Source: a virus
Virus genome (UHGV): UHGV-1840938
Direction: 5' to 3' (one strand)
Length of the DNA: 27,462 nt
Positions 15,344 through 16,587 of the stretch are shown here, piece after piece; the first letter of the stretch is position 1, and each line of letters begins with the position of its first letter. The notes under the pieces were generated by a model. The model ran no database searches, was not told the DNA's origin, and was given only the letters and a program-made list of their open reading frames with translations. The translations under genes and the position numbers were made by a program.

Positions 15344-16246
15344 TTATGACTCACTTTGTTCTGGAAAAGGGAAAGAAGACAGAACAAGAACCTGTCGATT
15401 TGTTTTATACATGTATTCATTAATGACGTTATGTATATTTTTTAACGCCATGCTAAAATCTTTATCGTATGTAAAGTCTTCTACTTTTATCCTTAAGTCA
15501 TTGATAAGAGTGTTTATTCCTATCGTTCTTCCGTGAGAATGCCACTTTCCGTTGTCACTAAGAGCGGTAGCGATCATTTTAGCCCTCGCTTCCTTTTCCC
15601 TCTTGGTAACTAGCTTTCCTCGTTTTGTGTTACCCTGATGAACTGTCCACTCTCTAAATTTATACTCCACAAGCCATTTCTTAAGCAAGTCTATTGATAG
15701 TTCTCTGGCTTGCTCATATCTCCGCAAGTGCGCCAGATCTAACTGACTAAGCATCATCAGTTCAGCTTGGGTAATGGTTCCTTCTCTGGATTTATTAATC
15801 ATTTCTTCAACTTTATCAAGGTATCCCAAAGCGGGAACCCATTTACCGTCCGACGATTGCACTTGAGGATCAATAGGTCCTAATGAAGAAGCATAGTCCA
15901 TGTAAATTTTATCTCCAGACATGCACCATATTGTACCTGCCGACATAGCCATGTCTGGAATGATAAAATATACCTCTTGGTAGAAATGCCTTGTAATTTC
16001 TACCATTTTTTCTACAGACTCAACAGAACCACCGTTTGTATTGAGTATAATAACAAGAAATTTATTGGTACGACTGTTAGCCATCTCACCAATAGCTTCA
16101 AGTTTTGGCTGGTAAACTTCTTTTGACCATGGAAAGATGCCACCGTAGTACGCAATGACGTCACAGTTTGGGAAAAATTTATCCTTAAATTGCTCTAACT
16201 GCCAAGAGATGTATGTTTCTAGTGTTGAATCAAGATTTTGGCTCAT
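15344..16246 (-). CDS. ClpP-fold serine peptidase (SDH/S49 SppA-like), AT-rich cargo gene
   Basis: NTNGGSVESVEK and active-site-like PDMAMSAGT resemble ClpP/SppA-fold motifs; start chosen at ATG 16246 (ORF track uses TTG 16255); GC visibly lower than neighbours. Confidence 0.7.
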   Translation of the reverse strand: MSQNLDSTLETYISWQLEQFKDKFFPNCDVIAYYGGIFPWSKEVYQPKLEAIGEMANSRTNKFLVIILNTNGGSVESVEKMVEITRHFYQEVYFIIPDMAMSAGTIWCMSGDKIYMDYASSLGPIDPQVQSSDGKWVPALGYLDKVEEMINKSREGTITQAELMMLSQLDLAHLRRYEQARELSIDLLKKWLVEYKFREWTVHQGNTKRGKLVTKREKEARAKMIATALSDNGKWHSHGRTIGINTLINDLRIKVEDFTYDKDFSMALKNIHNVINEYMYKTNRQVLVLSSFPFPEQSES

Positions 16247-16401
16247 TTGATACAATACCTTGTTATATTAACAATTTACTATAAGATGTTGCACCATAGT
16301 TTTCGTTAATCACAACTAAAATCACCCAAACATCACCCAAACGTCTCTTCAGGTTACTAGTTAACAACAGGCCAAAAATTCTGTCTGAACGTATTGAAAT
16401 A

Positions 16402-16427
16402 AAGGCCGGGAAAGCGGCCTTGTTTTT
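16402..16427 (-). terminator. Intrinsic terminator after the small secreted-protein gene
   Basis: Stem AAGGCCG/CGGCCTT with loop GGAAAG and T-rich flanks on both strands; directly after the stop at 16426. Confidence 0.5.
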
Positions 16428-16587
16428 AGCGAATACCACCACCGCCAGGACGAGAATCAGCAGAACGACCACCACAACGAGAGCCGTCAGCAGCGGTATC
16501 ATTGTCGTGTTGGCAACGACCAGCGAATGATTGAGTCGAAGCTACCAGTGACAACAAAACGAACAATACAGCAAATGATTTTTTCAT
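16426..16587 (-). CDS. Small secreted protein (53 aa, signal peptide MKKSFAVLFVLLSLVASTQSFA)
   Basis: Textbook signal peptide with AxA-like cleavage site; followed by a terminator; lies between cI and the protease gene. Confidence 0.4.
   Translation of the reverse strand: MKKSFAVLFVLLSLVASTQSFAGRCQHDNDTAADGSRCGGRSADSRPGGGGIR

Follow-up and report, generated by a model that had tools for sequence, protein, structure and literature searches.

The lambdoid Escherichia coli prophage in UHGV virus genome UHGV-1840938 (27,462 nucleotides [nt]; this whole stretch is referred to below as the window) carries a two-gene cassette encoding a predicted ClpP-fold protease of the SDH family and a protein of 56 amino acids (aa). 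The cassette occupies the lambdoid immunity-operon cargo slot, from cI to the post-rexB terminator. Here, we report its limits, distribution and relatives, and weigh what it may do. We tentatively read it as a prophage-expressed exclusion or abortive-infection module that would work via regulated proteolysis, and place this reading a little below even confidence. A bolder reading, in which the pair constitutes a new, widespread anti-phage family of prophages and genomic islets, with a pseudosubstrate-gated ClpP-fold protease released on infection, is possible and somewhat more doubtful again.

The cassette limits follow from a comparison with lambda and with a second prophage (locus L005) that is 97% identical to lambda over cro-cI. 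Homology between L005 and lambda ends 2 nt before the cI stop codon and restarts at the outermost base of the rexB stop, and the protease-partner cassette fills this interval in place of rexA-rexB to within a few bases. The segment shared by L005 and the window (91.8% identity, blastn) covers window positions 15125 to 16334, about 1.2 kb, and includes a terminator that is 88% identical over 33 nt to the lambda sequence starting at the rexB stop. A first-pass annotation, made from the letters of the window without database searches, had put the protease in the rexAB position downstream of cI, and both comparisons bear this out. The extent that it gave (15344 to 16587) has to be redrawn, as it leaves out both the 56-aa open reading frame (ORF) and the terminator (Table 1). 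Both rexA-rexB and the cassette are two-gene, AT-rich cargo of the immunity region in the same slot, after cI and before this terminator. A cassette standing for rexAB in an otherwise lambda-like prophage is a natural comparison of one backbone with different cargo, and rexAB, among the oldest exclusion systems, is still incompletely understood.

Just upstream of the cassette, a four-way alignment with lambda and two prophages uncovered 21 nt of a fossil lambda-type cI 3' end (CCTGAAGAGACGTTTGGGTGA, encoding ...PEETFG-stop). The fossil overlaps an 11-nt tandem duplication (GTTTGGGTGAT, present twice), and the two together look like the scar of the recombination that brought the cassette in. 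The fossil shows that the cassette came from a prophage where it stood immediately behind a cI of this type. The cassette is a portable unit of an 88-nt leader, the protease gene, the partner gene and a terminator.

Other E. coli prophages carry the cassette 72 to 100 nt downstream of the repressor, on the same strand, and behind at least four different repressors; in the inspected genomes without the 53-aa peptide described below, it is the protease gene that begins 72 to 100 nt past the repressor gene. The upstream same-strand neighbors in prophages are repressors (17 of 97 upstream neighbors scanned matched Peptidase_S24 and 21 matched HTH_3). On the far side of the cassette, lambda-like prophages carry the N gene, with an N antiterminator/peptide matched in six downstream neighbors. 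A further copy (locus L130) lies at 5042 to 6883 of plasmid pSM107_MCR, in a lambda-like prophage region of this 111-kb plasmid, the name of which suggests mcr. The stretch from 15100 to 16700 was found, at least partly, in 22 of 5426 complete E. coli genomes; with this sparse distribution, a GC content of 0.38 and toxin-antitoxin modules around it, the cassette has the marks of a mobile accessory element.

The protease ORF (minus strand, 15344 to 16255) encodes 303 aa if read from a TTG codon; RefSeq starts it at the ATG at 16246, which gives 300 aa. It is AT-rich, as first described (GC content, 0.383; whole window, 0.465; cI, 0.473). Pfam family PF01972 (SDH_protease) matched residues 65 to 202 above its gathering threshold (44.1 bits versus 31.3; E = 1.7e-11), and the NCBIfam equivalog NF047768 scored 57 bits against a cutoff of 250, so the protein is assigned to a divergent SDH subfamily and not to the equivalog. 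It belongs to phrog_11747 (E = 6e-99), a PHROG without an assigned function. An AlphaFold2 (AF2) model built from a 56-sequence alignment reached a predicted local distance difference test (pLDDT) score of 92.4. Its best Foldseek matches among solved structures were SppA, ClpP and the NfeD protease 1510-N (probability 1.00; 15 to 19% identity), in agreement with the ClpP/SppA fold proposed in the first-pass annotation. The best matches over the full length were giant-virus proteins annotated as SDH proteinase (TM score, 0.55 to 0.69), with the C-terminal helical domain included.

The serine that had been proposed as catalytic from the motif PDMAMSAGT is S102, the Ser of an M-S-A-G motif, and is invariant across the 56 homologues. 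Also invariant are D144, K145, K196, S237, H238 and R240, and D126 is nearly so. Candidates for catalysis are S102 and H238 together with either D126 or D144; alternatively, S102 may form a Ser-Lys pair with K145. The protein is probably an active ClpP-fold serine protease. No signal sequence or membrane segment was found in it (maximum Kyte-Doolittle value, 1.17).

The protease family comprises 341 clusters at 50% identity (E ≤ 1e-30), or 1657 at E ≤ 1e-10, and almost all of its members have a single domain and a length of about 290 aa. In one clade of metagenomic proteins (P0246, P0247, P0252, P0270 and P0272), the C terminus is extended by about 100 aa that include two CxxC pairs and resemble a zinc ribbon. 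No close homologue was found among isolated phages (50,697 records); the only matches there are 26 to 29% identical, in Shewanella phage MuM16-1 and Gordonia phage BeeGee. The BeeGee relative, gp31 (locus L128, 3809 to 4771; 29% identity, E = 2e-19), is distant; its gene is flanked by the tail genes on one side and the central leftward-transcribed region on the other, where actinophages frequently keep prophage-expressed cargo. No experimental function for any SDH-family (PF01972) member was found in the searchable literature. A subfamily that travels with a small partner bearing a conserved tail motif offers a testable handle on what SDH enzymes do.

The partner gene starts with an ATG directly after the TAA of the protease gene, in the same frame. 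We collected 44 viral-contig loci and 80 genome loci from many phyla, with protease identities of 43 to 100%. Almost all contained an ORF of 53 to 91 aa on the same strand, with its start no more than a few tens of bases from the protease stop. By a profile made from these small ORFs, 119 of 126 loci have a partner homologue directly downstream, in every case on the protease strand; one of the other seven is cut off by a contig end. The pair is present in prophages and in Bacteroidota, Acidobacteriota, Planctomycetota, Gemmatimonadota, Spirochaetota and others. Outside prophages, in these other phyla, it forms a stand-alone two-gene islet between unrelated housekeeping genes. The two proteins co-diverge, distances among the proteases tracking those among the partners (r = 0.775; Mantel P ≤ 0.001), and the protease is far better conserved (mean identity, 55% for the protease and 20% for the partner). 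Two database proteins (P0229 and P0133) fuse the protease and partner reading frames. Judged by this conservation, the partner of the protease is the 56-aa ORF and not the 53-aa peptide that the first-pass annotation had grouped with it. Small partner ORFs of this kind are largely absent from predicted-protein sets (3 clusters in the protein databases versus 4454 protease hits).

The partner has two predicted N-terminal helices followed by a conserved nonhelical tail (LKNRGLINKPVFTLAYGP) with an aromatic-x-aliphatic core. In enteric bacteria the tail reads ...G-L-L-x-x-P-x-F-x-L-A-Y-G-P (core FTLAYGP), and in most other phyla it reads ...Y-x-L-P-x-x-D-T-I-G-K/R. No transmembrane segment or signal sequence was found (maximum Kyte-Doolittle value, 0.61). 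Searches against Pfam and NCBIfam assigned no family, the sole match being a subthreshold ArgR N-terminal domain (E = 0.006), and no relative was found among solved structures. A profile match to designer pentatricopeptide-repeat proteins with an apparent E value of 1e-38 was rejected as a repeat-sum artifact: a single stretch reaches about 12 bits (E near 1), and the high total comes from adding up ten identical repeats, each of which matches one helix plus "KG-I-x-P." Likewise, a C-terminal repeat in P0256 that resembled the partner motif by eye was dropped, as the partner hidden Markov model gives it no score.

Set beside its relatives, the cassette combines familiar and unfamiliar parts. 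It shares no sequence similarity with RexA or RexB (no PADLOC hit; Pfam and PHROG hits to protease families only), and its predicted chemistry is proteolysis. RexB is a multipass membrane protein, whereas neither cassette protein has a membrane segment. With the SDH proteinases (PF01972, formerly DUF114; NF047768) the protease shares a match above the Pfam threshold, the fold of the whole chain and the nucleophile Ser in M-S-A-G; it differs in its divergence, with the Pfam match confined to the segment given above, and in its conserved small partner gene, which is unlinked to the protease in any annotation seen. The core fold and nucleophile position are shared with SppA (S49) and ClpP, but at 17 to 19% identity and TM scores of 0.38 to 0.55, and about 160 residues at the C terminus of the cassette protease form an additional helical domain. 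SppA has a membrane anchor and the cassette protease does not, and ClpP works with a partner ATPase, of which there is no sign here.

The NfeD/STOPP protease 1510-N of Pyrococcus horikoshii is a ClpP-fold protease encoded next to the protein that it cleaves. It is a structural match to the cassette protease (entry 6m4b), and the S97-K138 spacing of 1510-N is close to the S102-K145 spacing here (43 residues). The cassette nonetheless falls outside that group: NfeD1b_N scored 29.3 bits against a cutoff of 40, the small partner has no SPFH/stomatin or other Pfam domain, and NfeD/STOPP proteases are membrane bound whereas this one is predicted to be soluble. In protease-based anti-phage systems (Lit of e14, the Lon-type CalpL, gasdermin-activating proteases and IetS), a restrained protease released on infection stops phage growth; these have metalloprotease, Lon, caspase-like or subtilisin folds and other partners. 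We know of no described anti-phage system with a ClpP-fold SDH protease.

From the slot we infer a function for the cassette, and we propose a mechanism. It would be made in the lysogen and would protect it from other phages by exclusion or abortive infection. In lambda lysogens rexAB is co-transcribed with cI, and by analogy the cassette should be expressed in lysogens wherever it directly follows cI. The partner tail may bind the active-site cleft of the protease as a pseudosubstrate or slowly cleaved substrate and so keep the enzyme gated. This is the weakest step, and we consider such gating less likely than the defense role itself; a precedent for a tail in the cleft is SppA, crystallized with its own C termini in the active sites (by the title of entry 4kwb). 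An infecting phage could then lift the gate by titrating the partner, destabilizing it or stopping its synthesis, and the freed protease would degrade a phage or host protein required for phage growth. In this scheme, sensing or regulation would fall to the fast-evolving partner, and the conserved protease would act as the effector.

Some neighbors are compatible with such a role. About ten immediate neighbors of collected loci matched PADLOC families very strongly (methyltransferases of types II and III, DrmD, SngC, JetC, PD-Lambda-5_B and a type I S subunit), a signal that we count as weak support because no background was measured. At E ≤ 1, no family of PADLOC-DB v2.0.0, which does not extend to systems described after 2023, matched either cassette protein or the 53-aa peptide. 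The searchable literature likewise yielded no match, in line with the first-pass annotation, which could name no described defense system that fits. If the cassette does protect against phages, a ClpP-fold protease would join the enzyme types of bacterial immunity. If the pair is a new anti-phage family, it would give SDH-type proteases a first function and provide a natural functional replacement for rexAB in lambda-type prophages.

Several points weigh against a defense role or parts of it. A place in a cargo slot is not a function, and the same slots also carry virulence and fitness genes. Phenotypes, expression data and biochemistry for any member are absent from the searchable literature. 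Searches on the SDH family/PF01972, ClpP-like defense and genes downstream of cI returned nothing relevant, leaving aside the E. coli prophage-defense screen of Brenes and Laub (2025), and a language-model defense preprint does not mention proteases. The defense link among neighbors is modest: it concerns immediate neighbors only, has no background control and includes many PADLOC matches to generic helix-turn-helix or helicase proteins. Expression in this particular lysogen is uncertain, because another gene and a hairpin stand between cI and the cassette in the window and no strong sigma-70 consensus was found in the leader. The AF2 model of the partner alone is of low confidence. The two database fusions of protease and partner (P0229 and P0133) may be artifacts of gene calling or assembly.

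The best-surviving alternative, which we still regard as unlikely, is an addiction or stabilization module resembling a toxin-antitoxin system, in which the ungated protease would be harmful, a short-lived partner would neutralize it and loss of the pair would kill the cell, with no anti-phage role needed. Two tightly coupled co-directional genes, a conserved enzyme with a small fast-evolving partner, would suit it, as would the stand-alone islets in many phyla and the hicAB pair that adjoins the cassette here, with other toxin-antitoxin modules in relatives. The TAA-ATG start-after-stop arrangement is present. Against it, Pfam detected no known toxin or antitoxin domain, and the order of enzyme first and small protein second, which occurs in some toxin-antitoxin types, is not diagnostic. 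An addiction module would moreover overlap with abortive infection and does not exclude it.

Somewhat less probable again is host-fitness or physiology cargo, with the protease processing a host protein or maturing the partner into a cellular or signaling peptide to the benefit of the lysogen and unrelated to phages. Prophage cargo slots carry such genes too, and a small motif-bearing protein beside a protease resembles pairs of precursor and processing enzyme; ClpP-fold NfeD proteases cleave a protein of the same operon, and 1510-N is among the structural matches. Set against this are the lack of a signal sequence or membrane segment in both proteins and of any exporter or modifying enzyme conserved among the neighbors, which vary from locus to locus and so provide no pathway context.

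It is improbable that the protease is a regulator of the prophage life cycle, acting on the phage's own repressor, antirepressor or lysis-lysogeny factors. This would explain the place next to cI and the repressors counted upstream. Yet a nearly identical cassette (protease 97% identical) follows at least four unrelated repressors, most non-enteric genomes have no repressor or phage genes beside it, and close relatives of this prophage lack it.

The first-pass annotation had joined the protease with a secreted peptide of 53 aa encoded between it and cI, and a single module of this kind now appears very improbable. The two genes stand side by side in the window and in 5 of the 5426 complete E. 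coli genomes, but the peptide is missing from 17 of the 22 region-matching E. coli genomes and from all non-E. coli loci, and 12 phage records contain it without the protease. In phage TL-2011b the peptide gene, without the protease, adjoins ant/arc and a YafO toxin gene, and in JNEC-KY204, a close relative of this prophage, it lies with cI and hicBA and without the cassette. A hairpin and the fossil cI end stand between the two genes in the window, and the products are predicted for different compartments, the peptide with a signal sequence and the protease without. By distribution, the peptide and the protease are separate cargo. The description of the ORF itself was accurate: it has a signal-peptide-like N terminus with a hydrophobic segment (Kyte-Doolittle value, 2.26), matches phrog_14503 and is named "transmembrane anchored protein" in RefSeq. 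The mature part, of about 30 aa, has two Cys residues and is rich in Gly and Arg. Peptides of phrog_14503 that are 80 to 97% identical occur in E. coli and Klebsiella phages of other types.

A terminator had also been placed between the peptide and the protease. The hairpin is real and folds on the minus (sense) strand at -10.8 kcal/mol with a UUUAUUU tail. It folds on the plus strand at -16.4 kcal/mol with a GUUUUU tail, so that the better U tract is on the strand opposite to the cassette sense, and it may terminate transcription in both directions or only partially.

A displaced or decayed prohead-maturation protease beside capsid genes, which the first-pass annotation had named as the contrary outcome, is effectively refuted by context and scores: the matches to phrog_53 (E = 5e-7, 75 residues) and NF045542 (24.9 bits against a cutoff of 120) are weak and span about 70 residues around the nucleophile, the gene lies in an immunity region with cI, hicAB and Rha as neighbors and no capsid or portal gene nearby, and the family is full length with intact invariant residues in nonphage genomes.

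Table 1. Coordinates of the cassette and adjoining features in the window, listed from cI leftward
Feature	Position	Strand	Basis
cI-type repressor	16684-17397	-	HTH_3 and Peptidase_S24 (S24 E = 1e-28)
53-aa peptide ORF with predicted signal sequence	16426-16587	-	phrog_14503 (E = 9e-38)
G+C-rich hairpin between 53-aa ORF and cassette	16402-16421		Folding energies on both strands
Lambda-type cI 3'-end fossil (16333-16353) and 11-nt tandem duplication (16321-16342)	16321-16353	-	Four-way alignment
Cassette leader, 88 nt, AAGG Shine-Dalgarno	16247-16334	-	92% homology to other cassette copies stops here
SDH-family ClpP-fold serine protease (predicted), 300 aa, predicted cytoplasmic	15344-16246	-	PF01972; phrog_11747; AF2
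Partner gene, 56 aa, predicted soluble	15173-15343	-	phrog_28875 (E = 5e-31); hypothetical protein in RefSeq
Intrinsic terminator closing the cassette	15137-15169	-	-21.2 kcal/mol, z = -4.5, then UUUUGUUUG
hicA-hicB toxin-antitoxin pair, convergent on the cassette	14461-15056	+	

The cI gene, with a divergent cro-like gene beside it, heads a leftward immunity transcription unit in which the cargo genes come after it. The stretch from 15100 to 16700 is 99.9 to 100% identical to five complete E. coli genomes. The best annotated relative of the window is the Stx1a prophage of strain 2015C-3121; the window was nevertheless rejected as an Stx1a phage, as it contains no stx sequence.

The region between cI and Rha gathers small accessory modules, with hicAB in the window and also a Panacea-domain pair in the relative JNEC-KY204. 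Further left on the minus strand, a C4 antisense RNA (13529 to 13616; 78.9 bits) and an isrK Hfq-binding RNA (13641 to 13716; 64.8 bits) lie at the start of the Rha-family regulator gene (12827 to 13612) and immediately upstream of it. With these RNAs, the prophage seems to have a second control region for immunity or antirepression, RNA-based in the style of P1/P7. Other Rfam matches above the gathering score were to sok antitoxin RNA, STnc100 small RNA and sRNA-Xcc1 (22758 to 22932 and 26714 to 26930 on the plus strand and 4215 to 4304 on the minus strand). A tRNA-Arg (CCT) gene at the left end of the window (96 to 170, minus strand) may be the prophage attachment site.

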